24,896 bases of DNA from an uncultured Candidatus Bathyarchaeia archaeon (lineage in GTDB: Archaea > Thermoproteota > Bathyarchaeia > TCS64). Where the stretch lies: the NCBI GenBank assembly GCA_964594895.1, contig CAZQOX010000001.1, forward strand, positions 1-24,896. Reading direction: 5' to 3'. Below the pieces are notes generated by a model that made no database searches, was not told where the DNA came from, and saw only the letters and a program-made list of their open reading frames with translations. The position numbers and the translations under genes are program-made. Positions 1,823 to 21,178 of this stretch are shown here, one piece after another. Each line of letters opens with the position of its first letter. Within the stretch, counting starts at the first letter, position 1.

Positions 1823-4800
1823 ATAAAGCCTCCTCGAACTCGTTCTTGGCGAGGTAGAAGCTCTCGTAGCTCTCCCTCGCTATCGGGTGGAGGCTGTAGC
1901 TAGCCTCCTCGAATATGAAGGTCATCTCCCCGAGCGCGCCATGCGTCTCCGCCGGCGTCTGGGTCTTAAGGTAGCCCAAGAGCTCACGCGCAGTGTAGTT
2001 GTCCTTGATCTTGTCGAACCTCTCACGCGCGTCCCTGAACTTGGCGTTGAATAGGCCGATGATCTCCTCACGGTAGTCGACTGTCTTCACGTCGAGCTCG
2101 GTGTTCAGCTCCTCGACGCGGTAACTGGCAGATATCTTCAGGCTCCCAGTCGACGCCTTGATCGTCGTGGTCAAAGCCGAACCCTCTTCACCGGTGTAGA
2201 CCACTCGGGGTTCACCGTCTACCTCCATGTCTACCTGGGCGTTCACTATCGGGTGGCCCTCGACAGTGGTCAACCTCACAGAGATCTCAAGCTCCTCGTC
2301 GACGCCCCAGACGTTGGGGAACGGGGCCCGTATCTGGGGCAGCGAGATGGTCAGCCGGGTCGACCCGGTCTCCGACTCAGCCACGCTCGTAGGCTTCTCC
2401 GGCGGCGCCGCCTCGGTCCCCTTCATACGCATGTAGACTAGGGCGCCTACACACGCGAGGCCGAGGAAAACGGCCGCAGCCTGTAGCACAGGGAAACGTG
2501 TCGGCGTGAGCACCGTCAGAGTGGTCATGGCTGAGGCAGCCGTGTAGAGACCCTCCCCCCGATACGTAGCGGACAACGTCACGGTATTGCCCTCCGGCTC
2601 GGAAAGCTTGAAACTGAACTCCGCCACGCCTGCGTCGTCAGTTGTTGCCGTGAGGTTCCCGGCGAGTTCGCCGCAGCGGTAGAGGAGCGTCAAGGGTTTG
2701 CTCCCCAGAGACTCGCCGTGGTCGTCCCTGAGCACGGCTCTTACGACGTTCTGCCGCCCGGCCTGAACCTCCTGTCTCGACTCGAAGCCGATCTGCGGCC
2801 TCGCCTTCACGACGGCGGAAGCATCTACCCTCTGCTGGTTGCTGTGGAGAGTGAACTCCAGGGGGACATCACCCAGCTCATGGTCGATGGGCGGCCTGTA
2901 GGAGATGAAGAACTCGCCCACCTCGTTAGTCACCGTGGAGATCTCCTTGCCTTCCAGGCGGAGGGTCAGGGCCTCGGAGTCGCCGGGGACCTCGTCGGCG
3001 TGGACCCTGCCCTTGATGACCGAGTTCTCGCCCCGGACCAACGCGATGTCTCTCGTGGGGGTGATGGTGAGGGGAACCGACTCGACGTATGTGCTCGCGG
3101 ATGCCCCGAGATGATACTCAGCGCCCCCGTACGTCATCTTCACCTCGAATGCGCCTGGCTCAGCGAGGAGCACCGTGACTCGAATGCGTCCCTCGCCGTC
3201 GGTGACCCTGTTGTAGGTCTCTGCCCCGGCGGAGACTGTGCACTGGGCTTCGGCGAGGGATCTGCTGGTCTGCTTCTCCACCAGAGTGCAGGATATGTTG
3301 AAGGCTTGACCGGTGACGACCTTCTCGGGCACGTCGATCGTGAACTCGGTCTCCATGTAGCTCACTATCGGCGGATCGCTCCACGAGTCCATGTACACCT
3401 CGTTCCCCAGCGTGTGGGCGTCCACGTTGTACTCTCCCCCCGGGAGACCGACGGGGAAGAGACAGGTGACGTTGAACCTGCTGTCGACAACCACCCCGCG
3501 ACCAGCCAGGGTGCCGTTATCAGATTTCTCCTTCTTCAGGTAGACGAGGACGTCTAGCCCCGAGGCGTCGTTCCCCTGGTCATCCACGACGGTGCCTGCC
3601 ACGGTGAAACGTGAGCCGACGAGGACGTACTCGTCCTGGTACGTGATCGTGGTGTTTGTCGGTGTTCTGTTCGGAGGCTCCTCGGGCGTCCAAGTCTCTC
3701 CGGTGGGCGTCGCGTCGAAGACGATCCACCCGAGGTCGTCGAAGAGAGCCTCCGTGTATGCGTGGGCCTGAGTCGTCTCCACGGACTGGGCCTCGGCGGC
3801 GGGGTCGACCAGGTAACCCGTCACGAGCCGCGCCGGCACGCCTAGGCTCCGGGCGAGCAGAGTCAAAGCCGTGTTGAAGTTGGTGCACACCCCCTGCCTC
3901 TCGCGGAACAGGAACCACTCCACCGGGTCTACGTCGCCTGGAGACCGGGTGTAGGAGAGGTTGTAATGGTAGTTGGTCTTCAGGTGGCTCTCCAGGGTCT
4001 TCACCTTGAGGTACGGCGACTCTACGTTACGGGTGATCTGCTCCGCAAAAGGAGTTATCAGGGTCTCTAGGGTGTCCGGCACCTGTAAATACAATGTGCT
4101 ATTGTAGGGCGTAGCCTTCTCCAGAGTCGTCTCGTTGAACACATAGACCTCTGACTGCACCTCGTAGCTCAAGGCCAAAGGTTCGTCCACGCGGAATAGC
4201 TCGTGCTCGGGGTAGAAAGTCATGTTCCAGTCGACGACGACTTGCAACGGGTGAAGCGGCGAAGGTATGAAGCCGCCAAGGGCCTGAACCGGCTCAACGT
4301 AGTAGTGATGCTCCTGGATGCCGCTGTAGTTGCCTACGACGGATGCCACGTACTGGCCCCAGTACGGGACAGGGGTGGAGCCGTGCATGTACCATGAGCC
4401 GTTGTAGTAGTCGCCGACGCCGTCCCTCAAGTAGGGTGAGCCTGTGGCCCCGTAGATCCTGAATACCTCTTCACCTGTCGTAGGTACCTCGCCTTCGACG
4501 GGTAACTCTCCGCCGTCGTCGATGGAGGGCCCAGGAAGCCCGCCTGTCTCGTTGAAACCTCCGAACTCCTCGATCATGGACAGCAGGTCCGCGCCCGGCG
4601 TGGCGTCGAAGATTATCCAGCCGAGGCCCTCGAAGGGGACCTCGGTGAACGCGTGAGCCTGGATCGGGTAGACGTCTTGTATCGTGGCTTCGGGGTCGAT
4701 GTAGTAACCTCCCACCAGCCTCGCGGTTATGTTCAGGCATCTGGCCATCATGGTGAGAGCCGTGTTGAAGTCGGTGCAGACCCCCTCCCCGCTCTCGTAT

Positions 4801-5573
4801 AGGAACCACTCCAGGGGGTCTACGCCGGGTGGAGCGTCCGGGCAGGTCAGGTTATAGTCGTAGTGGGTCTCAAGGTACTCCTCCAGGGCCCGAAGCTGCA
4901 TGTACGGCGTCGAGGCGTCGCCAACTATCTCCTCGGCAAGCGCCGTGAGGTCGCCCTCGATCTCCTCGGGCACCTCAAGGTAGTCTGGGAGATACATGAC
5001 GTCGCTCACGTTGAGGACTTCGTCGCTGTAGCTGTACTTGATGTAGGTTAGGTTGTATGCGTCGACGCCCGCCTCGCAGCTGAAGACCATCTCGTCGCCG
5101 TAGTAGGTGACCAAGTCGGTGAGGTTAAGACCAATGGTGTTTGGTGCAGTAGGGATATACACGCCCAGATCTGTCAGCGGCTCGACTGTGAAGCTGACCC
5201 GCATGGGTGAGGCGTTAACATAGATGTCGGGCCAGAGAAGCTCACCCGTATAGGCGATGGGGTCTGAAGGCGAGGAGCCCCAGAGCCCGGATAGATACCT
5301 GTCGTAGGCCATGAGCCTCAGGTACTTCGTCCCCGTGGAGCCCCTCACCCGGAAGATGGGGCCGGATTCACCCATCTCTATGTCCGGCTTCTCCAGCTTC
5401 GTTGACTCGGGGTTGGGCGTCGGGGGTGTCTCTGGCTTCAGATTGGGCACGTTGGGCGTCTGAAGCCCCTCCAGGGTAGGAACCTCGCCCAGAGAGTCTA
5501 TGGAGAGGGATAGCAGCAGGACGGATAAAACGATACACGCTAACACGATAACTGTCTTATTTATTCGCTGCAA
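1806..5573 (-). CDS. Large membrane/surface protein: two transglutaminase-like (TgpA-type) modules, Ig-like repeats, C-proximal TM helix and DUF4129-like tail
   Basis: Two Cys-His-Asp sets: GVCTDFNTAL/AHAFTEV/FDATP and GVCTNFNTAL/AHAYTEA/FDATP. N-terminal hydrophobic anchor (VIVLACIVLSVLLLSLSI), Pro-rich linker, TM VLQAAAVFLGLACVGALVYM. Start placed at TTG 5573 (GGTGG upstream); the track's extension to 5744 lies in AT-rich spacer DNA. The exact start is uncertain. Confidence 0.9.
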   Translation of the reverse strand: MQRINKTVIVLACIVLSVLLLSLSIDSLGEVPTLEGLQTPNVPNLKPETPPTPNPESTKLEKPDIEMGESGPIFRVRGSTGTKYLRLMAYDRYLSGLWGSSPSDPIAYTGELLWPDIYVNASPMRVSFTVEPLTDLGVYIPTAPNTIGLNLTDLVTYYGDEMVFSCEAGVDAYNLTYIKYSYSDEVLNVSDVMYLPDYLEVPEEIEGDLTALAEEIVGDASTPYMQLRALEEYLETHYDYNLTCPDAPPGVDPLEWFLYESGEGVCTDFNTALTMMARCLNITARLVGGYYIDPEATIQDVYPIQAHAFTEVPFEGLGWIIFDATPGADLLSMIEEFGGFNETGGLPGPSIDDGGELPVEGEVPTTGEEVFRIYGATGSPYLRDGVGDYYNGSWYMHGSTPVPYWGQYVASVVGNYSGIQEHHYYVEPVQALGGFIPSPLHPLQVVVDWNMTFYPEHELFRVDEPLALSYEVQSEVYVFNETTLEKATPYNSTLYLQVPDTLETLITPFAEQITRNVESPYLKVKTLESHLKTNYHYNLSYTRSPGDVDPVEWFLFRERQGVCTNFNTALTLLARSLGVPARLVTGYLVDPAAEAQSVETTQAHAYTEALFDDLGWIVFDATPTGETWTPEEPPNRTPTNTTITYQDEYVLVGSRFTVAGTVVDDQGNDASGLDVLVYLKKEKSDNGTLAGRGVVVDSRFNVTCLFPVGLPGGEYNVDAHTLGNEVYMDSWSDPPIVSYMETEFTIDVPEKVVTGQAFNISCTLVEKQTSRSLAEAQCTVSAGAETYNRVTDGEGRIRVTVLLAEPGAFEVKMTYGGAEYHLGASASTYVESVPLTITPTRDIALVRGENSVIKGRVHADEVPGDSEALTLRLEGKEISTVTNEVGEFFISYRPPIDHELGDVPLEFTLHSNQQRVDASAVVKARPQIGFESRQEVQAGRQNVVRAVLRDDHGESLGSKPLTLLYRCGELAGNLTATTDDAGVAEFSFKLSEPEGNTVTLSATYRGEGLYTAASAMTTLTVLTPTRFPVLQAAAVFLGLACVGALVYMRMKGTEAAPPEKPTSVAESETGSTRLTISLPQIRAPFPNVWGVDEELEISVRLTTVEGHPIVNAQVDMEVDGEPRVVYTGEEGSALTTTIKASTGSLKISASYRVEELNTELDVKTVDYREEIIGLFNAKFRDARERFDKIKDNYTARELLGYLKTQTPAETHGALGEMTFIFEEASYSLHPIARESYESFYLAKNEFEEALYGEES
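3700..5380 (-). repeat. Internal protein-level duplication of the transglutaminase module (period 297 aa)
   Basis: Catalytic Cys codons at 4776-4778 and 3885-3887 (891 nt apart). Parallel motifs FRV/IxGxTGxxYLR, YxYNL, PGxVDPxEWFL, ARLVxGY, GWIxFDATP. Boundaries are approximate. Confidence 0.85.
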
Positions 5574-5825
5574 ATAGCCCGTCCACCATGATATTCGAAG
5601 GCGAACGCGATATAAGAGTTCTAGATGAATGAAATAGATCAAATTGTTAACGGAGTCGATACTTAGGTGGTATCTTAATGCGCGCACATAGAAATATAAA
5701 GCATAAAAACCTAAAAAAAACGACACGTAATTAACATAAATCAATTAAAAACCTTTGGCATCTTTTAATATTAATAGAAATAAAGGTAATGAAGGCCATG
5801 TTCTATTTACGATAGCAGATAACCC

Positions 5826-5918
5826 AGCATCGGTTCTTGAATAGGACAATGACTGTTAAACTGTACGAAAAACGAACTTTAACATCCACAATACCGTGAA
5901 AAGACCACAACCGATGTT
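5826..5918. promoter_or_regulatory. Nested inverted repeats in the spacer between the divergent transglutaminase and hdr operons (possible structured leader or operator)
   Basis: CATCGGTT (5828-5835) pairs with AACCGATG (5909-5916), enclosing TGTTAAA (5854-5860) / TTTAACA (5878-5884). Function not established. Confidence 0.4.
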
Positions 5919-6020
5919 TGAATTAGAGTGACGTTTCCTCTGGATAGTGGATCATGGTTTAGGGGGTCCATGGGCTCAGGGGTTTCCATTTAATCAATGC
6001 TCGGAGTTGAAGTATGACAG

Positions 6021-6509
6021 ATGATGGCGTTAAATCGTTTATCCTCCAAAGAGAAAAAGTACATGGGTGTGGCGGAGCAGTGCACCCAGTGCGGTAAATG
6101 CTCCAGCGGGTGCCCAGCCGCAAGATACCTTGAGCTGAGACCGCGGAAGATCGCGTTGATGGCACAGAGAGACCTCATCGACGAGCTGCTTGATTCCGAC
6201 GTGATCTGGATGTGCACCCAGTGTCATCAATGCATGGAGAGGTGCCCACGGGAGATCACGCCCTACGACATCATCATATACCTCCAGAACCTGGCGGTGC
6301 TGAGAGGATACGACTACCCCAAGGATCTTAACATGCTCCTCGCCTCCATCAAGAGGTACGGGGCCATCCAGCTGCCCCAGGAGATATTCGACAAGGAATT
6401 CGAGAACTATGAGAGAGAGGACCTTAACCTGCCCGACCTTGAGGGCCCAGCGGACATGGAGGGGTTCCAAAAGGGCTTGACCAAGGTGCTGGAGGAGTCG
6501 AAGCGTTGA
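6021..6509 (+). CDS. hdrC: Heterodisulfide reductase subunit C-like 2[4Fe-4S] protein
   Basis: CTQCGKCSSGCP and WMCTQCHQCMERCP motifs; stop overlaps the start of hdrB (TTGA). Confidence 0.92.
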   Translation: MMALNRLSSKEKKYMGVAEQCTQCGKCSSGCPAARYLELRPRKIALMAQRDLIDELLDSDVIWMCTQCHQCMERCPREITPYDIIIYLQNLAVLRGYDYPKDLNMLLASIKRYGAIQLPQEIFDKEFENYEREDLNLPDLEGPADMEGFQKGLTKVLEESKR

Positions 6510-7384
6510 GGTACGCGCTGTATCTGGGCTGCTGGATACATACTCAGCAGTACGGCTACGAGATGTCCACCAGAAGAACCCTGCCCAGGCTGGGAGTGGA
6601 GCTCCACGACCCCGAGGGCTTCAGCTGCTGCGGCTACCCACTGAGGAGCTTCAACGACTCGGCGTGGTTCTACCTCTCGGCGAGGAACCTCGCGATAGCC
6701 GAGAGGGACGGCCTCGACATACTCCCCCTGTGCAACGGCTGTTACGCCTCGATGAACGAGGTGAAGCACTACCTTGACTCCGACGAGGAGTTCAGGAGCT
6801 ACATCAACGAGGCTCTGAGCAACGAGGGCTTGGAGTACAGAGGAAACAGACGGGTTAGACACATCCTAGAGGTTCTTCACGACGACATCGGAGTCGAGGA
6901 GATAGAGACGGAGATAGAGACGCCGCTGTCGGGGCTATGCTTCGCCACACACTGCGGCTGCCACGCGTTGAGGCCCAGCGACTTCAAGCACACAGACGAC
7001 CCCGAGGACCCCAGGCTGCTGGACGAGGTGACCCATGCCCTGGGCGCTGAGACGCGTTACTACCCAGAGAAGATGGACTGCTGCGGAGCAACCCTGGTGA
7101 TCAGCGACTACGAGACGGCTTTCAAGCTGACAGGCTACAAGATCCAGGCCGTCCAGAGACGAGGCTTCGATGGACTCGTGACCAACTGCCCGTTCTGCTT
7201 CAAGATGTTCGACTCCAGGCAGGACGCCGTTGGCAAGATCATACACGACGAGGGGCTCAGCCTCCCCGTCTTTTACGTTACCCAGCTACTGGGACTCGCC
7301 CTCGGCATGGATGCGTCTGAGCTCGGCCTCGGTTTCAACATGAGCCCTGTAGATAAGGTAATCGAGAAAATTGGAGGAGGCTGA
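6506..7384 (+). CDS. hdrB: Heterodisulfide reductase subunit B-like (two CCG domains)
   Basis: YLGC, SCCG, LCNGC, HCGCH, DCCG, NCPFC: the full cysteine set typical of HdrB non-cubane cluster sites. Confidence 0.95.
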   Translation: MRYALYLGCWIHTQQYGYEMSTRRTLPRLGVELHDPEGFSCCGYPLRSFNDSAWFYLSARNLAIAERDGLDILPLCNGCYASMNEVKHYLDSDEEFRSYINEALSNEGLEYRGNRRVRHILEVLHDDIGVEEIETEIETPLSGLCFATHCGCHALRPSDFKHTDDPEDPRLLDEVTHALGAETRYYPEKMDCCGATLVISDYETAFKLTGYKIQAVQRRGFDGLVTNCPFCFKMFDSRQDAVGKIIHDEGLSLPVFYVTQLLGLALGMDASELGLGFNMSPVDKVIEKIGGG

Positions 7385-7388
7385 GGCG

Positions 7389-8705
7389 ATGGAATCGTCT
7401 GTTGTCGTCATCGGCGGAGGGATAGCCGGCATCCAAGCGTCTCTCGACCTTGCTGACGGCGGCCACAAAGTGTACCTCGTCGAGAAAACGCCGAGCATCG
7501 GAGGCAAGATGGCGCTGCTTGACAAGACCTTCCCGACCCTCGACTGCGCCATCTGCATACTCGCGCCCAAGATGATCGAGGTCTACAGGCACCCCCGCAT
7601 CAGGCTCCTCACCAACTCCGAGGTAACCGAGGTCTCCGGGGAAGCCGGGAACTTCACCGTGAAGGTGACGAGGAAGCCCAGGTACGTCGACGAGGACAAG
7701 TGCATAGGCTGCGGCGTATGCGCCCAGAAGTGCCCCGTAAACGTGCCTGACGAGTACCAGATGGGGCTCAGCGACAGGAAAGCCATCCATCTGCCTTTCC
7801 CGCAGTCGGTGCCACTGGTCTACAGCATCGACCCGGAGCACTGCCTCTACCTGACTCGAGGCGTCTGCAGGATCTGTGAAAAGTTCTGCGAAGCAGGGGC
7901 CATAAATTACGAGCAGAAAGAGGAGGCCCTCGAGATAGAGGCCTCAGGCATAGTCGTGGCCACAGGGCTTGAGCCCTTCGACCCCACCATCATCAACGAG
8001 TATGGGTACAAGAGGTTCAGCGACGTCGTCACCGCCATGGAGTTCGAGCGCATGATAACGGCCACGGGCCCCACCGAGGGGGAGCTACTCCGGCCTTCAA
8101 ACAGCCAGCACCCCCACAGCATCGCCTTCATCCAGTGCGTAGGCTCCAGAAGCCTACGCGAGGGAAACCCCTACTGCTCCGCAGTGTGCTGTATGCACGC
8201 AACGAAGGAGGCGATACTCGCAAAAGAGCACGTCCCAGACGTGGAGGTGACCATCTACTACACAGACCTCAGGGCCTTCGGGAAAGGGTTCAGGGAGTTC
8301 GTCGAGAGAGCCATGAAAGAGTATGGAGTCAAGTACGTCAGGGGTAAGCCGGCGGAGATCAGGGAGGACCCCGACACGAGGAGGCTTCAATTCTGGTACG
8401 AGGACACCCACACCGGCGACACGGGTTTCGCGGAGACGGATATGGTTGTGCTCTGCACGGCCCTCACCCCGAGCCCAGGAAACATGGGTCTCGCCGAGAC
8501 CCTGAAGGTTGATGTGGACGAGTACGGTTTCTTCACCCAGCCGAGGCCCTTGAGAGACCCTGTTGGTACGACTCGTGAAGGCGTCTACGTCTGCGGGTTC
8601 TGCCAAGGCCCTAAGGACATACCCGACTCCATCGCGGAGGCCAGTGGAGCAGCGTCAATGGTTTCGGTCATCGCCAACAAGAACACGGGAGAGACGGAAA
8701 GATGA
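7389..8705 (+). CDS. hdrA: HdrA-like flavoprotein, short form (FAD domain plus inserted ferredoxin; no N-terminal domain, no C-terminal ferredoxin)
   Basis: VIGGGIAG Rossmann motif, LDKTFPTLDCAIC, CIGCGVCAQKCP, CLYLTRGVCRICEKFC, MEFER, QCVGSR, CSAVCCMHATKEA. ATG 7389 preferred over TTG 7371 because GGAGGAGG lies at 7373-7380. Confidence 0.93.
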   Translation: MESSVVVIGGGIAGIQASLDLADGGHKVYLVEKTPSIGGKMALLDKTFPTLDCAICILAPKMIEVYRHPRIRLLTNSEVTEVSGEAGNFTVKVTRKPRYVDEDKCIGCGVCAQKCPVNVPDEYQMGLSDRKAIHLPFPQSVPLVYSIDPEHCLYLTRGVCRICEKFCEAGAINYEQKEEALEIEASGIVVATGLEPFDPTIINEYGYKRFSDVVTAMEFERMITATGPTEGELLRPSNSQHPHSIAFIQCVGSRSLREGNPYCSAVCCMHATKEAILAKEHVPDVEVTIYYTDLRAFGKGFREFVERAMKEYGVKYVRGKPAEIREDPDTRRLQFWYEDTHTGDTGFAETDMVVLCTALTPSPGNMGLAETLKVDVDEYGFFTQPRPLRDPVGTTREGVYVCGFCQGPKDIPDSIAEASGAASMVSVIANKNTGETER

Positions 8706-10858
8706 ACGGAGAAGAGGCCCCGAAGATTGGGGTGTTCCTCTGCCACTGCGGAACCAACATAGCCGGGGTGGTCGACGTACCCAGCGTCGCCGAGTACGCC
8801 CGCAGGATACCTGGGGTATACTACGTAGAGGAGAACCTCCACACCTGCAGCTCCGAGGGCATCAACCACATCAAGGAGGCCATCGAGAGGGAGGGGCTGG
8901 AGAGGGTCGTCGTCGCCGCGTGCACCCCACGAACCCACGAACAGCTGTTCATGGAGGCCGTGGAGGAGGCGGGGCTCAACAGGTACCTCTTCCAGATGGT
9001 CAACGTACGTGAACAAGACTCATGGGTCCACGGGGACAAGGACGCCGCGACGGCGAAAGCAAAACAGCTGGTCCACATGGCGGTGGCGAAGGCAACTTAC
9101 CTAGAGCCCGAGGAGAGGAGAAAGATCGACGTCACACCCACATCCCTCGTGGTGGGGGCCGGCGTGGCCGGGATGACCGCTGCGCTCGCCCTGGCGGAAC
9201 AAGGCTTCCAAGTCATACTAGTAGAGAAGGAGGGCGAGCCCGGAGGCCTAGTGAAGAAACTTTTCGACTTATCTCCCACCAACCAAGACGCAGAGGAGTT
9301 CCTCGCACCCATGATCGACGCGGTGCGAAGCAACGACAACATACAGCTCTTCACGTCATCCAAGGTCGTGGACGTCAGCGGCTTCATAGGCCACTTCAAC
9401 GTCGGCATCAAATCAAACAAGAATCATCTCTCCACCGAGGTGGGAACCATCATCGTAGCCACCGGTGCAGAGGTCTTCACCCCCGACGGATACTATTCCT
9501 ACGGCGAAACCCCCAACATAGTCACACAGCTTGAGCTCGAGGAAAAGCTCCGTGAAGGCTCGTTCAAGGTTCCAGACCATGTGGCTTTCATCCAGTGCGT
9601 CGGCAGCATGGAGGAGAAAGGGAGGACATACTGCTCGAGAATATGCTGCGGCGTGGCGCTTAAGAACGCCATACGGCTGAAGGAGCTCAACCCAGACGCG
9701 GATATCCACATACTCTACAGGGAGCTTCAGGCATACGGGGTCGAGCTGGAGGCGCTGTACAGGGAGGCCCTCAGCAAGGAGGTCAAGTTCATCAACTATG
9801 TCCCGGAGAGGCCGCCGGAGGTATCGGCTCAGAGCGGAGGCATCAATCTGAGTGTCTACGACACGCTTCAGGGATCGGATGTGGAGCTGCAGCCAGGTTT
9901 GGTCGTCCTCTCCACCCCTCTCGTGCAGCACGAGGAGGGGCGAGCCTTGGCTAAGCTGCTGAGGGTCCCACTGGGCTCAGACGGCTTCTTCCTCGAGGCA
10001 CACCCCAAGATGAGGCCCGTCGACTTCTCGTCCGACGGCATCTACCTCTGCGGGACAGCCCACGCACCAAAGAACATCGCGGAAAGCGTCACCCAGGGAT
10101 ACGCCGCGGCTTCACGGGCAGCCATACCCATGAGGCTGGGTGAGATCAGCATAGACGCAGTCAGTGCAGTCCTCGACCCGGAGCTCTGTGTAGGCTGTGG
10201 GGCGTGCGCCAGCGGATGCCCCTTCGACGCCATCGAGTGGATGCCCTCGGGGAAGCCCCACGTGATCGAGGCGGCGTGCAAAGGCTGCGGCGTCTGCACG
10301 GTGGAGTGCCCGGTGGGCGCCATGCAGCTGAGATACTTCAAGGACAAACAGCTTGTGCCCGCCGTCAGAGCCCTCATGCAGCGGACACCAGGGATGAATG
10401 TAGATGACTCATCAAACCCGACTGTGCTGGTTTTCGCGTGCAGGTGGTGCAGCTACGCGGCGGCCGACTACGCGGGTGTGATGAGGCTCAGCTACCCGGC
10501 CAACGTCCGCATACTCATGGTGCCATGTACTGGCAGGGTCGACTTCAGACACATATATGAGGGGTTCAGCAGCGGCGCCGACGGAGTAATAGTGATAGGG
10601 TGCCTCAAGGAGCAGTGCCACTACACAGACGGCAACATAATCGCAGAGAGGAGGGTCGAAGTAGAGAAGAAGGCCATAGAGGTCCTAGGTATTAGCGGCG
10701 ACAGGCTTGAGATGCTCTTCTGCAGCGCAGGAATGCCCAGGGAGTTCGCAGAGTATATGCGGAGCTTCACCGAGAGGATCAAGCGGCTTGGGAAGATCGA
10801 ACGCGAGACGGTCCGAGCGTTCAAGGAGATAGAGGTAGAGGCAGCGGCTGGAGGGTGA
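8702..10858 (+). CDS. hdrA: HdrA-like flavoprotein fused to an MvhD-like [2Fe-2S] domain (N-terminal domain, FAD domain, C-terminal ferredoxin, MvhD)
   Basis: KIGVFLCHCGTNI...HTCS...ACTP; VVGAGVAG; CSRICCGVALKNA; CVGCGACASGCP and CKGCGVCTVECP; C-terminal FACRWCSYAAAD...VPCTGRVD...GCLKEQCHY (MvhD). ATGA overlap with the preceding gene. Confidence 0.93.
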   Translation: MNGEEAPKIGVFLCHCGTNIAGVVDVPSVAEYARRIPGVYYVEENLHTCSSEGINHIKEAIEREGLERVVVAACTPRTHEQLFMEAVEEAGLNRYLFQMVNVREQDSWVHGDKDAATAKAKQLVHMAVAKATYLEPEERRKIDVTPTSLVVGAGVAGMTAALALAEQGFQVILVEKEGEPGGLVKKLFDLSPTNQDAEEFLAPMIDAVRSNDNIQLFTSSKVVDVSGFIGHFNVGIKSNKNHLSTEVGTIIVATGAEVFTPDGYYSYGETPNIVTQLELEEKLREGSFKVPDHVAFIQCVGSMEEKGRTYCSRICCGVALKNAIRLKELNPDADIHILYRELQAYGVELEALYREALSKEVKFINYVPERPPEVSAQSGGINLSVYDTLQGSDVELQPGLVVLSTPLVQHEEGRALAKLLRVPLGSDGFFLEAHPKMRPVDFSSDGIYLCGTAHAPKNIAESVTQGYAAASRAAIPMRLGEISIDAVSAVLDPELCVGCGACASGCPFDAIEWMPSGKPHVIEAACKGCGVCTVECPVGAMQLRYFKDKQLVPAVRALMQRTPGMNVDDSSNPTVLVFACRWCSYAAADYAGVMRLSYPANVRILMVPCTGRVDFRHIYEGFSSGADGVIVIGCLKEQCHYTDGNIIAERRVEVEKKAIEVLGISGDRLEMLFCSAGMPREFAEYMRSFTERIKRLGKIERETVRAFKEIEVEAAAGG

Positions 10859-10862
10859 CGGC

Positions 10863-11684
10863 GTGTACAGGATAACCGAGAAACAGGAGATACAGCCAAA
10901 CATCAACATGTTCAAGGTATACGCACCGGCCGTGTCGAAGAAGGCGGAGCCGGGACAGTTCGTGATCATCAGGAGCAACGAGAGAGGCGAGAGAATGCCG
11001 ATGACTATCGCGGGAACAGAGCCCGACGAAGGAACAGTAACCATATACTTCGCGGAGGTGGGAGCCTCCTCCAAAGAGTTAGGAGCCCTTGGCGAGGGAG
11101 ACGACATACTCAACTTCTCCGGGCCCCTCGGAAACGCGATACCCATCGAAGAGTATGGAAACGTCCTCTGTATCGCTGGAGGAGTGTTTCAGGGAGCCAA
11201 CTACTATCTATCGAAGAGGCTCCACGAGGCAGACAACGAAGTAACCAACGTCATCTGTGTCCCGAGCGAAGACCACTTGTTCCTCTTAGATGAGGTTGAG
11301 AGCGTAAGCAAGAACGTTCTCGTAGCCACCGACGACGCTGCAAACGGAGTCAACCTACCGGAATTACTGGAGAAAGTGTTCAAGGAGACCAGCTTTGACC
11401 GGGTATTCACGTTCGGACCCACCTCCATGCAGAGGCTGGTCGCGGAGACAACGAGGCCGCTGGGTATACCTACCAGAGTGGCCCTCTTCCCGATAATGGT
11501 TGACGGCACAGGGATGTGCGGGGCGTGCAGGGTAACCGTAGGCGGGGCGACGCGGTTCGCCTGCATAGACGGCCCAGAGTTCGACGGCCACCTGGTCGAC
11601 TTCGACGAGCTCATCTCAAGGATGAGGTACTATACCGCCCAGGAGAAGATCGCCATGGTTCTCCATGAGAGGAGGATCGTGTGA
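10863..11684 (+). CDS. nfnA: NfnA/SudB-like FAD/[2Fe-2S] subunit (PyrK family) of an Nfn-type transhydrogenase
   Basis: PGQFVIIR..GERMPMTIA, GPLG, PIMVDGTGMCGACRV...ACIDGPEFDGH. GTG start preceded by GGAGGGTGA. Confidence 0.88.
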   Translation: MYRITEKQEIQPNINMFKVYAPAVSKKAEPGQFVIIRSNERGERMPMTIAGTEPDEGTVTIYFAEVGASSKELGALGEGDDILNFSGPLGNAIPIEEYGNVLCIAGGVFQGANYYLSKRLHEADNEVTNVICVPSEDHLFLLDEVESVSKNVLVATDDAANGVNLPELLEKVFKETSFDRVFTFGPTSMQRLVAETTRPLGIPTRVALFPIMVDGTGMCGACRVTVGGATRFACIDGPEFDGHLVDFDELISRMRYYTAQEKIAMVLHERRIV

Positions 11685-13084
11685 TGGCTTTCGACGTCCC
11701 ACAGGTGGAGATGCCCAAGCAGACGCCGGAGGAGCGTGTGAACAACTTCGACGAGGTCGCGCTCGGCTACACCGAGGAACAGGCCGTCCAGGAGGCGTCC
11801 AGGTGCCTCGGCTGTAAGAACCCCCAGTGCATCAAGGGATGCCCGGTCGACGTCGACATCCCGAGCTTCATAGAGCTCATCAAGACAGAAAAATACGTCG
11901 AGGCAGCCGCCAAGATAAAGGAAACCAACGCCCTGCCAGCCATCTGCGGCCGCGTGTGCCCACAGGAGAACCAGTGCCAGAAACGTTGCGTCCTCGGCGT
12001 AAGAAGTGAACCGGTGGCCATCGGTAGACTTGAGCGGTTCGCCGCAGACTACGAAAGAAAGCATGGAGAACCCTCTAAACCTGTTAAGGGTGAAAGACTT
12101 GGCCGTGTGGCCGTCGTAGGCGCGGGACCCGCAGGGTTAACGGTGACGGCTGACCTCCTGATGAGAGGCTACGATGTGGAGGTTTTCGAGTCCCTCCACG
12201 AAGCAGGCGGAGTACTGATGTATGGCATACCCGAGTTCAGGCTACCCAAGGCGATAGTGCAGGCGGAGGTAGACTACGTCAAGAGCCTAGGGGCAAAGAT
12301 ACACCTCGACGCCACCATAGGCAGACTCCACACAATTTCAGAGCTTTTCGAGAGCGGCTTCCAAGCGGTCTTCATAGGGAGCGGCGCCGGGCTCCCCAGG
12401 TTCCTGAACGTCCCCGGCGAGAACCTCAAGGGGATCTACTCGGCAAACGAGTTCCTGATCAGGACCAACCTGATGAAGGCGTACAGGTTCCCCGAGTACC
12501 GGACCCCCATCACGGTGGGGAGGAACGTGGCGGTCATCGGTGGCGGGAACGTGGCCATGGACTCTGCTCGGTGCGCCAAGAGATTGGGCGCCGAGAACGT
12601 CTACATAGTGTACCGGAGGGGCAGGGAGGAGCTCCCGGCCAGGGAGGAGGAGGTAGAGAACGCCGAGGATGAAGACGTAATATTCAGGCTCTTGAACAAC
12701 CCGGTCAGGTTCATCGGCGACGACAGGGGCTACGTCACAGAAATGGAGTGCATCGGGATGAAGCTGGGGGAGCCGGACGACTCAGGGAGGAGGCGGCCCA
12801 TAGAGGTGGAGGGTTCAGAGTTCCTCATGGAGGTGGACAACGTGGTGGTGGCGATAGGGCAGACCCCCAACCCCTTAATACAGCAGACGACCGAAGGGCT
12901 AGAGGTGACCCGGTGGGGCACCATAGTCACCGACGAGGAGACGATGAAGACGAGCATCGACGCCGTCTACGCCGGCGGAGACGTGGTCAGCGGAGCCGCG
13001 ACTGTGATAAGCGCCATGGGGGCCGGAAGGAGGGCTGCGAGAGCCATCCACGAGTACCTGACCCAATCTCACTCGGCGACGTAA
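11681..13084 (+). CDS. nfnB: NfnB/SudA-like (GltD-family) NADPH-binding flavoprotein with 2[4Fe-4S]
   Basis: NFDEVALGY...EASRCLGC...CIKGCP...CGRVCPQENQC; VVGAGPAG; YGIPEFRLPK; VIGGGNVAMD...YRR; YAGGDVVSGAATVISAMGAG. Start is GTG 11681 or ATG 11684, overlapping the nfnA stop, with GGAGG at 11671-11675. Confidence 0.9.
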   Translation: MMAFDVPQVEMPKQTPEERVNNFDEVALGYTEEQAVQEASRCLGCKNPQCIKGCPVDVDIPSFIELIKTEKYVEAAAKIKETNALPAICGRVCPQENQCQKRCVLGVRSEPVAIGRLERFAADYERKHGEPSKPVKGERLGRVAVVGAGPAGLTVTADLLMRGYDVEVFESLHEAGGVLMYGIPEFRLPKAIVQAEVDYVKSLGAKIHLDATIGRLHTISELFESGFQAVFIGSGAGLPRFLNVPGENLKGIYSANEFLIRTNLMKAYRFPEYRTPITVGRNVAVIGGGNVAMDSARCAKRLGAENVYIVYRRGREELPAREEEVENAEDEDVIFRLLNNPVRFIGDDRGYVTEMECIGMKLGEPDDSGRRRPIEVEGSEFLMEVDNVVVAIGQTPNPLIQQTTEGLEVTRWGTIVTDEETMKTSIDAVYAGGDVVSGAATVISAMGAGRRAARAIHEYLTQSHSAT

Positions 13085-13326
13085 CAGGTCGTCGTGGAAA
13101 TTACACCGTAGAGGTTCCGTATCTTGTTGAGCACTATGTTCTGCAGCTGGTCTATGTCGTCAACTTCTACATCGACGTACATGTCATAGGGTCCGTAGAT
13201 GTAGTGGGCTTCCTTGACGCCCTCTAGGCTTAGTATCTCGTTCTTTAGCATGTTCTCTATCTTGGAGTCCACTCTCAGAAATACCAGAGCTCTGTGAGGG
13301 TCTGGTAGATCAAGCTCGCCTCGCAT
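13069..13326 (-). CDS. Stand-alone Lrp/AsnC ligand-binding (RAM) domain protein, no HTH
   Basis: 85 aa: ALVFLRV...LEGVKEAHYIYGPYDMYVDVE...IRNLYGVISTTT. Its 3' end overlaps the nfnB 3' end by 16 bp. Confidence 0.85.
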   Translation of the reverse strand: MRGELDLPDPHRALVFLRVDSKIENMLKNEILSLEGVKEAHYIYGPYDMYVDVEVDDIDQLQNIVLNKIRNLYGVISTTTCYVAE

Positions 13327-13377
13327 TCTATTACTGGATTAGTTTTCCAGTTATTGGAGCTATTGGAGGCATAAAAG

Positions 13378-13560
13378 TTCGCGTTTCGTACCATCATAGG
13401 AATATAGGGGTGTTCCTCGTAACATGAACGCCGTGAAACCACCCTCGAAACGAGAACTATATATACTATGTTTACTATAATTATTTTAAAAGAGAATGGG
13501 TTCCATATTGCAGAATCGTGTAAACGAGGCTGCATAGTCCAAAACCTCTTTAAACGAGAA
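13378..13560. promoter_or_regulatory. Array of (G/T)AAACGAGAA-like sites in the divergent promoter region of the two Lrp-family genes
   Basis: GAAACGAGAA 13447-13456, TAAAAGAGAA 13487-13496, TAAACGAGGC 13521-13530, TAAACGAGAA 13551-13560, plus an inverted GAAACGCGAA at 13378-13387. Confidence 0.45.
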
Positions 13561-13570
13561 GTGCAAGAAA

Positions 13571-14017
13571 ATGCGGATAGATCGACTTGATCTGCAGATA
13601 CTTCGATCTCTGAGCAGGGACGGCCGCAAGCCGTTCAAGGCAATCGCACGCGAGCTAGACGTCAGCGACGCCACCATAAGGAAACGCGTGAGACGGATGC
13701 AGAAGGAAGAGATAATAAAGCAGTTCCACGTGCTCATCGACTACGACAAGATAGGTAACTTCATCAAGGCTTTCATAGGGCTCAAAGTAAACCCTCAACA
13801 GCTTCAAGAAATAGTGAATGAACTCGAGAACCACCCCGACATCCAGGTCATGTACAGGACCACCGGGGGGTGGGACATCTTCGTCGAAGTCATCTTCAAG
13901 GACATGCAGGAACTCAACTGGTTCATGGAGAAGAAGCTGAGCATCGACGGGATAATAGGCACAGAGGCGAACGTTGTCATCGGCTCATACAAACGGTGCC
14001 CGTGCACAAATATATAG
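13571..14017 (+). CDS. Lrp/AsnC family transcriptional regulator (HTH plus RAM)
   Basis: IDRLDLQILRSLSRDGRKPFKAIARELDVSDATIRKRVRRM (AsnC HTH); YRTTGGWDIFVEV (RAM domain). Confidence 0.95.
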   Translation: MRIDRLDLQILRSLSRDGRKPFKAIARELDVSDATIRKRVRRMQKEEIIKQFHVLIDYDKIGNFIKAFIGLKVNPQQLQEIVNELENHPDIQVMYRTTGGWDIFVEVIFKDMQELNWFMEKKLSIDGIIGTEANVVIGSYKRCPCTNI

Positions 14018-14095
14018 AGCCGCTACTTAGCCCAGATACCTAGCGCTTTACCCTCAAGTTCATATTCTCATAATTATGATGTATACTGGATTTGT

Positions 14096-14908
14096 ATGTC
14101 TGCTAAGGCGCGTAAGCTCTTCAACCCGTGGAACATAGCGTTGGTGACCCTACTAGTGGGGTTGATGCTGGGATACCAGGTCAACGACGTGTTGTCGTCA
14201 GGCAAGATCAGCAGCCTCCAGGAGACGATAGATGATCAGAGCGCCACGGTGACGGCGTTGGAGCAGCAGGTCGCCGTGCTGCAGGGGAACTACACCAAGA
14301 TTCAAGACGATCTGGCGCGGGTCACGGAGGTCTACGAGATCCTCCAGAACGACGCGGTCCTTAGGAGCATATACGACGAGCTGCTGGAGGACTACGAGGA
14401 CGCGACCCAGGAGCTGAACGACTCCACAGACAGGGTCTCTGAGCTCGAGGACCAAGTCGGCGATCTCGAGTACCAGGTAAGCGAACTCGAGGAAGACTAT
14501 GATGCGCTTCAGGAGAGCTACTTCAAGTTGTGGAACGAGTACAACAACATCAGGGTCTTGAGTTGGACGTACTTCGTCGTGAACGGTCTGGAGGTTAATC
14601 TCACGACTACCAAACTTGTCTACGAAACAAACACAAACATCGAAGGCTCTATAAGTATTCACTACATCAACGGCGATCCTTTCAACGGCACCTTCGTGCT
14701 GAGGGTATGGAGCGACGTTCTAAGTGTGGGCAGTAGTTCATCCGAGAAACAGATCTACGGTGAAGCAGAATATGTCTTCAATAATCCATTCATGTTTGGA
14801 GCGGGGTCGTATGTTCTCAGAGCTTCAATCATCAAGGACGCTGAGGGCAACGTCGTCGCCGGCTCTACTCAGCTTAAGGACTACTCGATAGATATGCAAG
14901 TAGGATAA
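14096..14908 (+). CDS. Membrane-anchored coiled-coil protein with C-terminal beta-rich domain, function unknown
   Basis: N-terminal hydrophobic helix (IALVTLLVGLMLGY), ~120 aa acidic heptad region (VSELEDQVGDLEYQVSELEEDYDAL), beta-rich C-terminus. Confidence 0.8.
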   Translation: MSAKARKLFNPWNIALVTLLVGLMLGYQVNDVLSSGKISSLQETIDDQSATVTALEQQVAVLQGNYTKIQDDLARVTEVYEILQNDAVLRSIYDELLEDYEDATQELNDSTDRVSELEDQVGDLEYQVSELEEDYDALQESYFKLWNEYNNIRVLSWTYFVVNGLEVNLTTTKLVYETNTNIEGSISIHYINGDPFNGTFVLRVWSDVLSVGSSSSEKQIYGEAEYVFNNPFMFGAGSYVLRASIIKDAEGNVVAGSTQLKDYSIDMQVG

Positions 14909-15242
14909 TGCCACAACCATCTACAGAGTATCGTAGCAGACACCCAAATTCATTGGGTGATGCAATTCTTATGCCTAGAACGATTCTAATCGAATGGCTT
15001 TCGAAGGATGTCACCGTACACGCGGCTCTGCTTGGTTAAGACGCTGATGATTATTGTAGGAGACGCTGCAAGAATCCGACGCTGAGCTGCCCCAAACATC
15101 GTCTGAATGCGGATTAAATGATTTTTTTTAATGCTAGAGGAAAATGATGTTTGTATCCTATGTGGCTACTTTGGGCTAGTCCTCTTAAGCGTCTGCGATC
15201 TCAAACGTTATATCCACTCGGATCATCTTAGGCTAGACTAAA

Positions 15243-16469
15243 TTGGCTGCGGCTTTCATAAGGGAGCTCGGGCGGGTCTGGAGGCGCCAGAAACGTAACT
15301 GGAGGACCGTCGTGACCCGCCAGATCTTCAACAGGTTCTTCAACGAGCTCACCCTCGAGTACGCCAACATCTACATCACCCTCCTCGGCGCCTCACCCGT
15401 GCAGCTGGGCGCGGTCAACAGCGTCTTGGGCGTCGCCCAAGCCCTCATATCCATACCGCTGGGCATCATCCGCGACCGCTTCAACCTCAGGAAGATCTAC
15501 CTCTTCGGCGTCGGCATGCTGGTGTTCGTGCCTCTCCTCTACGCCTTGGCGCCGAGCTGGCAGGTGATATCTCTCGCCATCCTCCTCTCGGGGCTCGGCA
15601 TGATGGTCGGCTCCTGCGTCATCATCTGTGACCTCAGCCTGCCGCACCGGGACAGGGCCACGGGGAAGGCGCTGTGTGAGGGAACCGGCGCCCTGCCGAC
15701 CATACTCGCCCCCACCGGTGCTGCCGTCCTCATCACGTTGTTCGGCGGCATAACCACCCGGGGCATCCGTGACCTGTACTGGATACAGTTCGCCGCCAGG
15801 CTGATGCTCTTCCTCTACGTCTACAGGAACCTCACCGACGTGGAGAGGCCCAACAGCGCGCCGAAGGGACTCGATGTGGCAGCAGAGTTCGGCGAGGTCT
15901 TCAGGCGGGGCACGGCGGTCAAGCGGTGGATTCTCTTCCAGAGCGTCAACACGTTCACGATGACCATGCTCTCCACGTTCAGATACCCATACATCTACGA
16001 CGTCAAAGGCGCCAGCCAGTACATCATAGGCGGCTTCGCCACGGCGACCCTCGTCACGGAAGCCATCTTCAGCACCGTCATAGGCAGGTTCGCAGACAGG
16101 ATGGGGCGGAAGAAGGCCTTCTACATACTCATACCGCTGGTCAGCGCCGCCAACCTCGCATTGATACTTGCGCCCACCCCGGGGTGGCTGCTGCTCGCCG
16201 GGTTCCTCATGGGGTTCAGGATGATCGCCACCTTCAGCTACGGCTCCATGACTCCCGAGCTGGTGCCCCCCGAGTGCCTGGGCCGGTGGCGCGGCCTGAT
16301 AGGCCTCTTCACCGGCCTAGCCAGCATACCAGCCCCCATCATCGGAGGCCTGATATGGGAGCGGCTCGGGCCCCAGTGGGTGTTCATCGCCATAACGGTG
16401 ATAGATCTGCTTGTCAGGACCCCTCTGCTGTACTCCGTCCCCGAGACCTTGAGAATCCGTAAAGAATAG
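15243..16469 (+). CDS. MFS transporter
   Basis: About 12 hydrophobic segments; GIIRDRFNLRK and GRFADRMGRKK MFS motif-A loops. TTG start with TTATAT at about 15207-15212 upstream. Confidence 0.92.
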   Translation: MAAAFIRELGRVWRRQKRNWRTVVTRQIFNRFFNELTLEYANIYITLLGASPVQLGAVNSVLGVAQALISIPLGIIRDRFNLRKIYLFGVGMLVFVPLLYALAPSWQVISLAILLSGLGMMVGSCVIICDLSLPHRDRATGKALCEGTGALPTILAPTGAAVLITLFGGITTRGIRDLYWIQFAARLMLFLYVYRNLTDVERPNSAPKGLDVAAEFGEVFRRGTAVKRWILFQSVNTFTMTMLSTFRYPYIYDVKGASQYIIGGFATATLVTEAIFSTVIGRFADRMGRKKAFYILIPLVSAANLALILAPTPGWLLLAGFLMGFRMIATFSYGSMTPELVPPECLGRWRGLIGLFTGLASIPAPIIGGLIWERLGPQWVFIAITVIDLLVRTPLLYSVPETLRIRKE

Positions 16470-21100: not shown

Positions 21101-21178
21101 AGAACCGCACCCAAATAGACTTGTTACTTGATGTTGTGCCTCGATAAAAACTGGACGCATCTAACGCTGACTGAATAA

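Follow-up and report, generated by a model that had tools for sequence, protein, structure and literature searches.

Two adjacent hdrA genes of a bathyarchaeal operon as predicted halves of one asymmetric HdrA core

The window analyzed here, a whole stretch of 24,896 nucleotides (nt) from an uncultured Bathyarchaeia archaeon, contains a tightly packed operon of six genes on the same strand, in the order hdrC, hdrB, short hdrA, long hdrA-mvhD, nfnA-like and nfnB-like. The pair under study consists of the short and the long hdrA (7389-10858), which are adjacent and co-oriented and share an ATGA overlap at 8702-8705. From hdrC onward, the junctions of the six genes are a TTGA overlap, a 4-nt gap, the ATGA overlap, another 4-nt gap and a GTGA overlap. 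Since gene spacing stays between -4 and +4 nt throughout the operon, the six genes are predicted to be co-transcribed and are probably translationally coupled. Relatives of the long protein were collected as 120 cluster representatives (54-70% identity), and every named one is from Candidatus Bathyarchaeota/Bathyarchaeia. DNA near-identical to the window is present in salt-marsh and soil metagenomes. A salt-marsh metatranscriptome has two 151-nt contigs, one matching the short gene at its 3' end and the other the long gene at its 5' end, and these low-level transcripts weakly indicate that both genes are expressed.

The short HdrA (7389..8705, + strand) is a protein of 438 amino acids (aa) read from the ATG at 7389, with a thioredoxin reductase (TrxR)-like flavin adenine dinucleotide (FAD) domain and an inserted 2x[4Fe-4S] ferredoxin. 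It matched residues 146-569 of 5odc_A (E 1.7e-145), which correspond to the FAD domain and the inserted ferredoxin alone; by the same alignment, the N-terminal domain (N-domain) is missing, and so is the C-terminal ferredoxin. This architecture corresponds to a published class, 'HdrA6' (PMC12054007). The FAD fold has its GxGxxG at G9-G14, and C250, C263, C267 and C268 form the FAD-domain [4Fe-4S] site, with 5ODC C386, C399, C403 and C404 as the reference ligands. E218/E220 (motif MEFER) align with 5ODC Glu354/356, and K273 (8205..8207, + strand; motif CCMHATK) aligns with 5ODC Lys409, the flavin-N5 lysine, in a register that matches Lys280 of BamE. The Cys pair C53-A-I-C56 (7545..7556, + strand), equivalent to 5ODC Cys194-x-x-Cys197 in alignment numbering, lies in the motif DKTFPTLDCAIC, to which DLSPTNQDAEE is the counterpart in the long HdrA. 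By homology, C53/C56 would be a redox-active Cys pair or a cluster ligand reaching the N-domain cluster of a partner. The inserted ferredoxin domain (7677..7946, + strand) has eight Cys, at 105, 108, 111, 115, 152, 160, 163 and 167. Its second cluster motif (C152-C167, 7842-7889) reads C-x7-C-x2-C-x3-C and is longer by a 5-residue insertion (LYLTR) than its counterpart in the PDB-aligned methanogen HdrAs.

The long HdrA-MvhD fusion (8702..10858, + strand, 718 aa) carries an N-terminal domain, a FAD domain, a C-terminal ferredoxin and MvhD. It aligned with 8rvu_a over residues 10-246 and 323-654, skipping the inserted ferredoxin. The N-terminal [4Fe-4S] domain (8702..9106, + strand), placed by alignment to the HdrA N-domain, has C14, C16, C49 and C74, all kept in 120/120 relatives bar one alignment gap at C14 and C16. 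The GxGxxG of the FAD fold is at G152-G157, and its glycines are kept in all 120 relatives; the FAD-domain [4Fe-4S] Cys (C299, C311, C315 and C316) are likewise invariant in 120/120. E278/E280 (LELEE) stand for Glu354/356 of 5ODC. K321 (9662..9664, + strand; CCGVALK) is the Lys409 equivalent, which the window retains although the family as a whole does not conserve it. The long protein has lost the Cys pair, with D196...E199 (9287..9298, + strand) at the Cys194/Cys197 positions, and neither position holds a Cys in any of the 120 bathyarchaeal relatives. The C-terminal 2x[4Fe-4S] ferredoxin (10154..10387, + strand) was delimited with Pfam Fer4/Fer4_21 (residues 489-542) and the HdrA alignment. 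It is followed by a [2Fe-2S] MvhD/FlpD domain (10424..10792, + strand; Pfam PF02662, residues 575-697, E 7.6e-45), which matched chains 9sfi_K and 5odc_D (E 1e-27 to 1e-30) and has five Cys that are invariant in the 120 relatives.

Both proteins are homologous to the domains and ligand sets of canonical HdrA (E 1e-131 to 1e-146), both have its FAD domain with a GxGxxG and a four-Cys [4Fe-4S] site, and both have a lysine at the flavin-N5 sequence position, K273 in the short one and K321 in the long one. On the NCBIfam HdrA models the two scored 413-697 bits, with cut-offs of 1100-1400. The canonical all-in-one set of N-domain, inserted ferredoxin, C-terminal ferredoxin and Cys194/Cys197 is complete in neither: of these four accessory elements the short protein carries only the inserted ferredoxin and the Cys pair, and each occurs once across the pair. 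The FAD-domain [4Fe-4S] module is present twice, once per protein, giving seven [4Fe-4S] clusters, one [2Fe-2S] cluster and two FAD sites as predicted cofactors of the pair. An earlier sequence-only reading of this DNA had given the same domain inventory for each protein, had quoted the motifs DKTFPTLDC versus DLSPTNQD, MEFER/LELEE and CCMHATK/CCGVALK, and had counted one copy of each accessory Fe-S module for two FAD sites; the 5odc_A and 8rvu_a alignments and Pfam agreed with it throughout, the doubled FAD-domain cluster being an addition. Mapping on structurally characterized HdrA set C53/C56, E218/E220 and K273 of the short protein opposite D196/E199, E278/E280 and K321 of the long one.

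To place the pair in a wider family, a profile of the long protein was compared with one genome per species, which returned 80 loci from many phyla, among them Bathyarchaeia, Asgard, Archaeoglobi, Thermoplasmata, Desulfobacterota, Chloroflexota, Planctomycetota, Acidobacteriota and Verrucomicrobiota. The window domains were mapped by phmmer onto all open reading frames (ORFs) of the survey and context loci (86 sources), and a unit was called long-type when the N-domain was present and the inserted ferredoxin absent. Of 101 long-type units, 64 occupy the second half of an ORF that begins with a short-type unit, 28 have a separate short-type gene immediately upstream, 6 stand at a contig end and 3 are solo. 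This leaves 95 that can be assessed, 92 of them fused to a short-type unit or next to one, and three further bathyarchaeal loci (L086-L088) have the same short/long tandem. The order in the survey is always short then long, as in the window, although the loci were picked by similarity to the long protein, so that other arrangements, such as the long-then-short fusions of anaerobic methanotrophic archaea (ANME), are under-sampled. These counts are classical evidence of the Rosetta-stone kind for the two window proteins functioning as a single unit, and the recurrence of the reciprocal pattern in 92/95 units from many phyla argues that the pattern of the window is not due to chance.

Position 197 was a Cys or a selenocysteine (Sec) in 80/80 short-type units (C-x-x-C in 58, C-x-x-TGA in 21 and S-x-x-C in 1). 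It was never a Cys in complete long-type units across phyla, in which both Cys positions hold almost any residue. The 21 short-type units that had seemed to lack the Cys pair proved on checking to be selenoproteins, all 21 with an in-frame TGA exactly at position 197. These Sec units are bacterial, mostly from Desulfobacterota (L017, L021, L024, L026, L027, L030, L048, L051, L054, L056, L058, L060, L061, L066, L068, L072, L075, L083 and L084); the TGA stands directly after DKTFPTNDCxx, and gene callers split such units into a stub of ~57 codons and a 'headless' HdrA.

The flavin-N5 lysine followed a similar division. The Lys409 equivalent was K in 77/77 short-type units and in 68/97 long-type units across phyla, the remainder of the latter having Q (10), D, N or R (4 each) or other residues; the Glu356 equivalent was E in 76/77 short-type versus 61/97 long-type units. 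Among the 120 bathyarchaeal relatives of the long HdrA, N is the commonest residue at the lysine position (66), ahead of K (45), S (6) and G (3). The subfamily of the window itself (at least 59% identity) has K in 38/39. In a second bathyarchaeal long HdrA-MvhD subfamily, with 711-715 aa and ~55% identity, the N5 lysine gives way to N, S or G.

In a tree of the FAD domain's C-terminal part, short and long types fell into two nearly clean, separate paralogue clades; this was a quick neighbor-joining tree without support values, re-rooted on the window proteins, as rooting on the two canonical HdrAs among the loci had given uninformative clades. The short and long distance matrices were correlated (Mantel r = 0.83, 71 pairs, a value reached in 0/999 permutations), and such co-divergence indicates an old duplication followed by joint inheritance of both paralogues.

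The role of the Cys pair was taken from Chadwick et al. (2022) and two cryo-electron microscopy papers of 2026. In 5ODC, Lys409 is hydrogen-bonded to flavin N5 (PMC6405883). A passage of Chadwick et al. (2022), citing Wagner 2017, names Cys197 of the other HdrA copy as a ligand of the N-domain cluster, and the paper runs the low-potential route to ferredoxin via that cluster (PMC9012536). The paper on the Methanococcus maripaludis super-assembly assigns cluster A3 to a mobile N-terminal domain and treats the Cys-Sec197 pair, which lies between this cluster and the bifurcating FAD, as a likely disulfide/selenylsulfide relay (PMC13518236). In BamE, a fused HdrA dimer of class II benzoyl-CoA reductase (BCRII), the bifurcating FAD is in TrxR1 (Lys280, Cys59-Cys62) and the FAD of TrxR2 is non-bifurcating with Gln768 at the lysine position; Cys59-Cys62 comes to 3.4 Å of cluster E3 in one state, the distance to the bifurcating FAD being ~13 Å (preprint 10.64898/2026.04.10.717634). 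According to these relay papers, the Cys pair belongs to the subunit with the bifurcating flavin and works with the N-domain cluster of the other unit. Yan & Ferry 2018, Baymann 2018, Poudel 2018 and a 2024 HdrA bioRxiv preprint contained no ligand-level or operon-level information.

Taken together, reciprocal losses of domains and ligands, translational coupling, fusion or adjacency in the order short then long, and co-diverging clades argue that the two genes encode halves of one asymmetric, pseudo-twofold HdrA core, a split form of a 'double HdrA' that is produced by many bacteria and archaea as one fused chain (type II HdrA, HdrL, Moorella HdrA, BamE). We give this reading, with the wiring described below, a probability of about 0.72. 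The sequence-only reading had already proposed an asymmetric heterodimer with one-directional wiring, for which the passage of Chadwick et al. (2022), the fusion and adjacency counts and the residue conservation all speak; that this heterodimer is obligate, as also suggested there, is a conjecture. Its argument was that a Cys reaching the partner's N-domain cluster would be kept only by the unit that faces an N-domain-bearing partner. The relation was right and matches the distribution of Cys/Sec described above, and the passage in Chadwick et al. (2022) describes Cys197 as an inter-subunit rather than an intra-subunit ligand (PMC9012536). The residue had been misassigned, however, because Cys197 corresponds to C56 and not to C53 of DKTFPTLDC, which is Cys194; as the long protein lacks both, the argument is unaffected. 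It had also noted that both flavin sites keep the E and K positions, which holds for the window and not for the family, given K in 68/97 and 45/120 long-type sequences. Of its two non-equivalent flavins, the second is less likely to be a working bifurcation site, in view of the non-bifurcating second FAD of BamE.

In the mechanism proposed here by homology with the solved structures of HdrA and BamE, the bifurcating FAD would reside in the short subunit together with K273 (at N5), E220 and the relay C53-x-x-C56, and the low-potential exit would be the inserted 2x[4Fe-4S] ferredoxin of that subunit. The long subunit would provide in trans the N-domain [4Fe-4S] cluster (A3/E3-type), which would sit between the Cys pair and FAD of the short subunit and the inserted ferredoxin of that same subunit. 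The long subunit would also supply a mobile entry arm, made of the C-terminal ferredoxin and the fused MvhD [2Fe-2S] domain. Every accessory module of the pair would then converge on the flavin of the short subunit, and the FAD of the long subunit would have only its own FAD-domain cluster as a neighbor and would probably be non-bifurcating, with a structural or auxiliary role. Judged from the predicted ligands, only one complete electron path can be assembled from the pair. High-potential electrons would leave by a FAD-domain [4Fe-4S] cluster to HdrC and on to HdrB, where a disulfide would be reduced.

The two genes upstream of the pair would serve this high-potential branch. The HdrC-like protein (6021..6509, + strand, 162 aa) is soluble, has two [4Fe-4S] motifs (Pfam Fer4_8, E 7.5e-12) and scored 88 bits against NCBIfam TIGR03290 (cut-off 160); its stop overlaps the start of hdrB at the TTGA. 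The HdrB-like protein (6506..7384, + strand, 292 aa) has two CCG cysteine-rich domains (Pfam CCG, E 6.9e-26, in two stretches), scored 264 bits against TIGR03288 (cut-off 345) and is the predicted site of disulfide reduction. The hallmarks of HdrBC are thus present, namely two intact CCG domains as non-cubane cluster sites in HdrB and the two [4Fe-4S] motifs in HdrC. As both proteins fall under the cut-offs for the reductase of the coenzyme M-coenzyme B heterodisulfide (CoM-S-S-CoB), they are not assigned to that substrate.

Downstream of the pair, the NfnA/SudB-like small subunit (10863..11684, + strand, 273 aa), a FAD/NAD-binding protein with a [2Fe-2S] site, matched 5jca_S (Pyrococcus furiosus NfnI, E 3.9e-74) and 4ylf_A (E 4.9e-74) and scored 332 bits against NCBIfam NF004862 (cut-off 220). 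The NfnB/SudA/GltD-like large subunit (11681..13084, + strand, 467 aa; 2x[4Fe-4S], FAD, NADPH) matched 4ylf_B (Thermotoga maritima NfnB) over its full length (E 4.4e-168) and scored 587 bits against TIGR01316 (cut-off 472). The sequence features of the NfnAB class were found: a large subunit with the two-cluster Fer4_20 domain and a FAD/NADPH domain, a PyrK-like small subunit with a [2Fe-2S] domain, and adjacent genes. This module would tie the core to NAD(P)H; it might deliver electrons to the MvhD arm or bind at the inserted ferredoxin, the place where relatives have a NfnB/GltD domain inserted. No dehydrogenase module other than NfnAB is encoded in the operon.

The gene contexts of bathyarchaeal relatives differed on the two sides of the pair. 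nfnA and nfnB lay downstream of it in every bathyarchaeal context examined, with a spacing of 2-5 nt in the window and in L086-L088, and with a glutamate dehydrogenase gene between the long hdrA and nfnA in L004 and L005. hdrC-hdrB lay upstream of the pair in the window's subfamily (L001, L002, L004 and L005). The conserved bathyarchaeal core, as judged from gene order, is therefore short HdrA, long HdrA-MvhD, NfnA and NfnB. Over all sources, a Nfn-like element accompanied the pair or its fusion in 35 of 86, and in 12 related loci a NfnB/GltD domain was inserted in the ferredoxin domain of the short unit. In Desulfobacterales and Anaerolineales, a ~600-aa fusion of a HdrC-like Fe-S protein with a NfnB/GltD-like one was observed after the HdrA core; the core before it is a split short/long-MvhD pair in five loci (L035, L039, L046, L047 and L049), a double HdrA in one polypeptide in L072, and in L053 a long HdrA truncated by the end of the contig. 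From its domains, this fusion appears to be another way of attaching a NAD(P)H module to an HdrA core.

Several points weigh against the asymmetric core as proposed. The wiring was carried over from homologues at about 35-50% identity. The long HdrA keeps K321 and E280, and with the FAD-fold glycines and cluster Cys kept in 120 relatives this indicates that its flavin is under selection and may be catalytically relevant. HdrBC is not a universal partner, given that L086 and L088 of the ~55% subfamily have no adjacent hdrCB and that the sole hdrCB set in L087 is divergent and lies next to a different hdrA-mvhD. NfnAB is a complete enzyme, very similar to stand-alone Nfn, and may lack a physical attachment. 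In L003 (10958-13051), the long HdrA has no adjacent short gene. This locus was dropped as proof of solo long HdrAs, since its nfnB is truncated (312 aa) and followed by a phage-type integrase, which suggests that the operon was broken by an integration event, and since the short gene is present in L086-L088.

A competing account of the pair, corresponding to the two non-equivalent flavins of the sequence-only reading, keeps the heterodimer and makes both flavins work. The long FAD would then be catalytic as a two-electron to one-electron converter or as a second bifurcation site, and the cluster of its own FAD domain would connect it to NfnAB or to a second HdrBC. K321 together with E278 and E280, the 38/39 lysines of the window's subfamily, the invariant cluster Cys (120/120) and the two FAD bound by the fused HdrA of Moorella (PMC5861303) would fit such an arrangement, and retention of K321 in the subfamily makes a catalytic role of this flavin possible. 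The lysine is nevertheless replaced by N, S or G in 75/120 bathyarchaeal relatives and by Q, D, N, R or others in 29/97 long-type units, against none of the 77 short-type units. Lacking the Cys pair, the inserted ferredoxin and a facing partner N-domain, the long-subunit flavin would have no low-potential branch, and the second FAD of BamE is not at the branch point; the loss of lysine seen there is shared by those 75 relatives and not by the window. The invariance of K in short-type units, its variability in long-type units and the BamE precedent make one bifurcating flavin, in the short subunit, more likely than two working ones, and we regard the two-flavin arrangement as unlikely. Far less probable still is that the operon holds two separate enzymes, a short homodimer with HdrBC and a long HdrA-MvhD homodimer with NfnAB. 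Canonical HdrA is a homodimer, and nfnAB does accompany the long HdrA-MvhD without hdrCB in L003 and the ~55% subfamily. A long-long dimer would, however, have two N-domain clusters without a Cys197 partner, and a short-short dimer two Cys pairs and inserted ferredoxins without a bridging N-domain cluster; fusion or adjacency in 92/95 units, and the short gene still standing beside the long one in L086-L088, also count against separate enzymes. We consider least credible of all that the pair is a QmoA/QmoB orthologue of dissimilatory sulfur metabolism with HdrBC in place of QmoC. The architectures are similar, with two HdrA-like flavoproteins of which the larger has a MvhD domain (PMC3333476), and HdrC weakly matched the qmoC model. 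Its score of 66 bits is far under the cut-off of 300, the window and the bathyarchaeal contexts were found to lack a membrane QmoC-type subunit as well as apr, sat and dsr genes, and both HdrAs scored best on the HdrA/HdrA2 models of NCBIfam. Qmo membership was judged from gene context, NCBIfam having given no QmoA/QmoB model matches. The likeness to Qmo pointed out by the sequence-only reading therefore stands for architecture and fails for the QmoC and apr/sat context; the tandem pairs of ANME and the double HdrAs made as fusions (HdrL, BamE and Moorella HdrA) are closer analogues.

How NfnAB relates to the core is a separate matter. It may be a free-standing NADH-dependent ferredoxin:NADP+ oxidoreductase that is merely co-regulated with the asymmetric core and linked to it by soluble ferredoxin, the MvhD arm being fed by an unlinked hydrogenase, formate dehydrogenase or F420-dependent enzyme. 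This has a real if lesser chance of being correct: similarity to the stand-alone Nfn of T. maritima and P. furiosus is full-length (E 4e-168 and 4e-74), both subunits pass the NCBIfam cut-offs, and in L004 and L005 the glutamate dehydrogenase gene splits the long hdrA from nfnA. Against it are the constant place of nfnAB after the pair in bathyarchaeal contexts, with 2-5 nt in the window and L086-L088, the NfnB/GltD domains physically inserted in the short-unit ferredoxin of the 12 loci and of HdrL, and the absence of another dehydrogenase module from the operon. At the other extreme, the six proteins might form a supercomplex in which two unrelated flavin-based bifurcation modules, of HdrA type (short subunit) and of NfnB type, are hard-wired in series via the inserted ferredoxin. 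We hold this to be a tentative and rather doubtful idea; if true, the complex would couple NADPH/NADH chemistry to disulfide reduction without free ferredoxin, as a split and modular 'HdrL' with a complete NfnAB.

Among known systems, the tandem HdrAs of ANME (HdrA5/6 and HdrA12/13) are likewise encoded by two adjacent hdrA genes, one protein with an N-domain and no Cys197 and the other with Cys197 and no N-domain, and from this complementarity an asymmetric heterodimer was proposed for the tandem and fused HdrAs of ANME (Chadwick et al., 2022, PMC9012536). The window pair differs in phylum, in the MvhD fused to its long subunit and in the flanking hdrCB and complete nfnAB; both heterodimers are predicted from sequence, and the likeness is one of architecture. 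In BamE, Moorella thermoacetica HdrA and 'type II' HdrA the units follow the same order, short-like then long-like, with the Cys pair and the N5 lysine in the first unit (C59/C62 and K280 in BamE, C53/C56 and K273 in the window). In these fused double HdrAs, as predicted for the window, the N-domain cluster, C-terminal ferredoxin and MvhD-type adaptor serve the first flavin, and there are two FAD per core. The fused systems are, however, single polypeptides where the window has two genes, the second FAD of BamE has Gln at the lysine position where the long subunit has Lys, and their output modules are BamBC/BamD or MetFV instead of HdrBC and NfnAB.

HdrL of Desulfobacterium autotrophicum is a selenoprotein, an Hdr/glutamate-synthase fusion with MvhD next to it (PMC2702500). 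Like the 'type III' HdrA with an inserted GltD (PMC12054007), it combines HdrA units with a GltD/NfnB NAD(P)H module, followed by MvhD, as in the window; in the window, by contrast, the NfnB-like protein is separate, complete and accompanied by NfnA, and position 197 is Cys rather than Sec. Proteins of HdrL type with 1420-1530 aa, a short unit with inserted NfnB and then a long unit, were found in the survey, and 'type III' HdrAs, which occur in ANME-1 and Bathyarchaeota, match this inserted-NfnB architecture. A variant was seen in a complete Bathyarchaeota chromosome (L034:5072-10438), where an 899-aa short-type HdrA containing an inserted GltD/NfnB domain precedes an 838-aa protein; the N-terminal part of the latter corresponds to residues 6-512 of the long HdrA (55% identity), and a LarA (lactate racemase) C-terminal part replaces the C-terminal ferredoxin and MvhD.

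QmoA/QmoB of sulfate reducers are also two non-identical HdrA-like flavoproteins, the larger with a MvhD-like domain (PMC3333476). They work with a membrane QmoC, a fusion of HdrC with the cytochrome b HdrE, and with AprAB, and are linked to aprBA/sat, all of which are absent from the window; its HdrC-like protein, at 162 aa, is soluble, and the likeness stays at the level of architecture. Methanogen HdrA (5ODC, 7BKB, 8RVU) is a symmetric homodimer with two complete electron paths, in contrast to the one path of the window pair. The NADH-dependent FlxABCD-HdrABC of Desulfovibrio and HdrA2B2C2 of Methanosarcina acetivorans have an HdrABC-type core with a nucleotide or deazaflavin donor rather than H2, and a MvhD-type adaptor that is FlxD or is fused as in HdrA2; they differ from the window in having a single HdrA type and donor modules that are unrelated or distantly related to NfnAB.

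The idea of a heterodimer was thus already published for ANME in 2022, and a structure of the fused version is available in a preprint; the sequence matches to solved structures included no split pair, Qmo, HdrL or Moorella HdrA. What may be new is the family-wide sequence rule that marks the bifurcating unit, the frequent occurrence of Sec at position 197 among bacterial members, and the four-gene core with a complete NfnAB. A limited literature search returned no paper dissecting the bathyarchaeal hdrCB-hdrA-hdrA/mvhD-nfnAB operon, and bathyarchaeal hdr and sud/nfn genes have been mentioned in general terms. The recurrent tie to NfnAB/GltD modules is the less explored part. As an annotation rule, short-type units always carry Cys/Sec at 197 and the N5 lysine, and both are relaxed in long-type units, so that the putative bifurcating unit of any HdrA pair or fusion can be told by sequence. 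HdrA-type bifurcation is central to anaerobic energy conservation, and the Cys/Sec197 pair, the mobile N-terminal cluster and gating are under debate. A natural split core would be handy for the genetic separation of functions, with the modules for one flavin spread over two small genes and a conserved 'control' flavin on the partner subunit adding to its usefulness. Bathyarchaeia are among the most abundant archaea of anoxic sediments and offer no cultured model for such chemistry. The operon occurs in well over a hundred bathyarchaeal sequence clusters and is probably a major node of bathyarchaeal NAD(P)H, ferredoxin and thiol redox balance.

Genes next to the operon hint at a link to amino-acid/NADPH metabolism. 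Regulators of Lrp/AsnC type adjoin it in the window (13571-14017), in L001 (~5001-5234 and ~12399-12971) and in L003 (4181-4624). A glutamate dehydrogenase gene lies inside or beside it in L004, L005 (10322-11668 in both) and L087 (3198-4478), and glutamine and asparagine synthetase genes are near the operon of L003.

Further downstream in the window are three major facilitator superfamily (MFS) transporters (15243-16469, + strand; 19871-21160, - strand; 21477-22679, - strand), a Pab87-type beta-lactamase-fold protein with an archaeal octamerization domain (17863-19278, - strand) and a DJ-1/PfpI protein (22742-23248, - strand); these transporter and peptide-processing genes have no evident tie to the hdr operon. 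On the other side, a 1312-aa protein with a transglutaminase-like core and immunoglobulin-like/macroglobulin domains (1806-5744, - strand) is followed by a 415-aa ORF with no Pfam match (575-1822, - strand). Both genes are divergent from the hdr operon, with an AT-richer spacer at 5745-6020 (G+C content, GC, about 0.49). The product of 14096-14908 (+ strand) has 270 aa, with a hydrophobic segment at its N-terminus and a long coiled coil (Pfam coiled-coil matches only sub-threshold), and is encoded in a low-GC stretch at 13000-15000 (GC 0.48-0.50 vs about 0.59 elsewhere).

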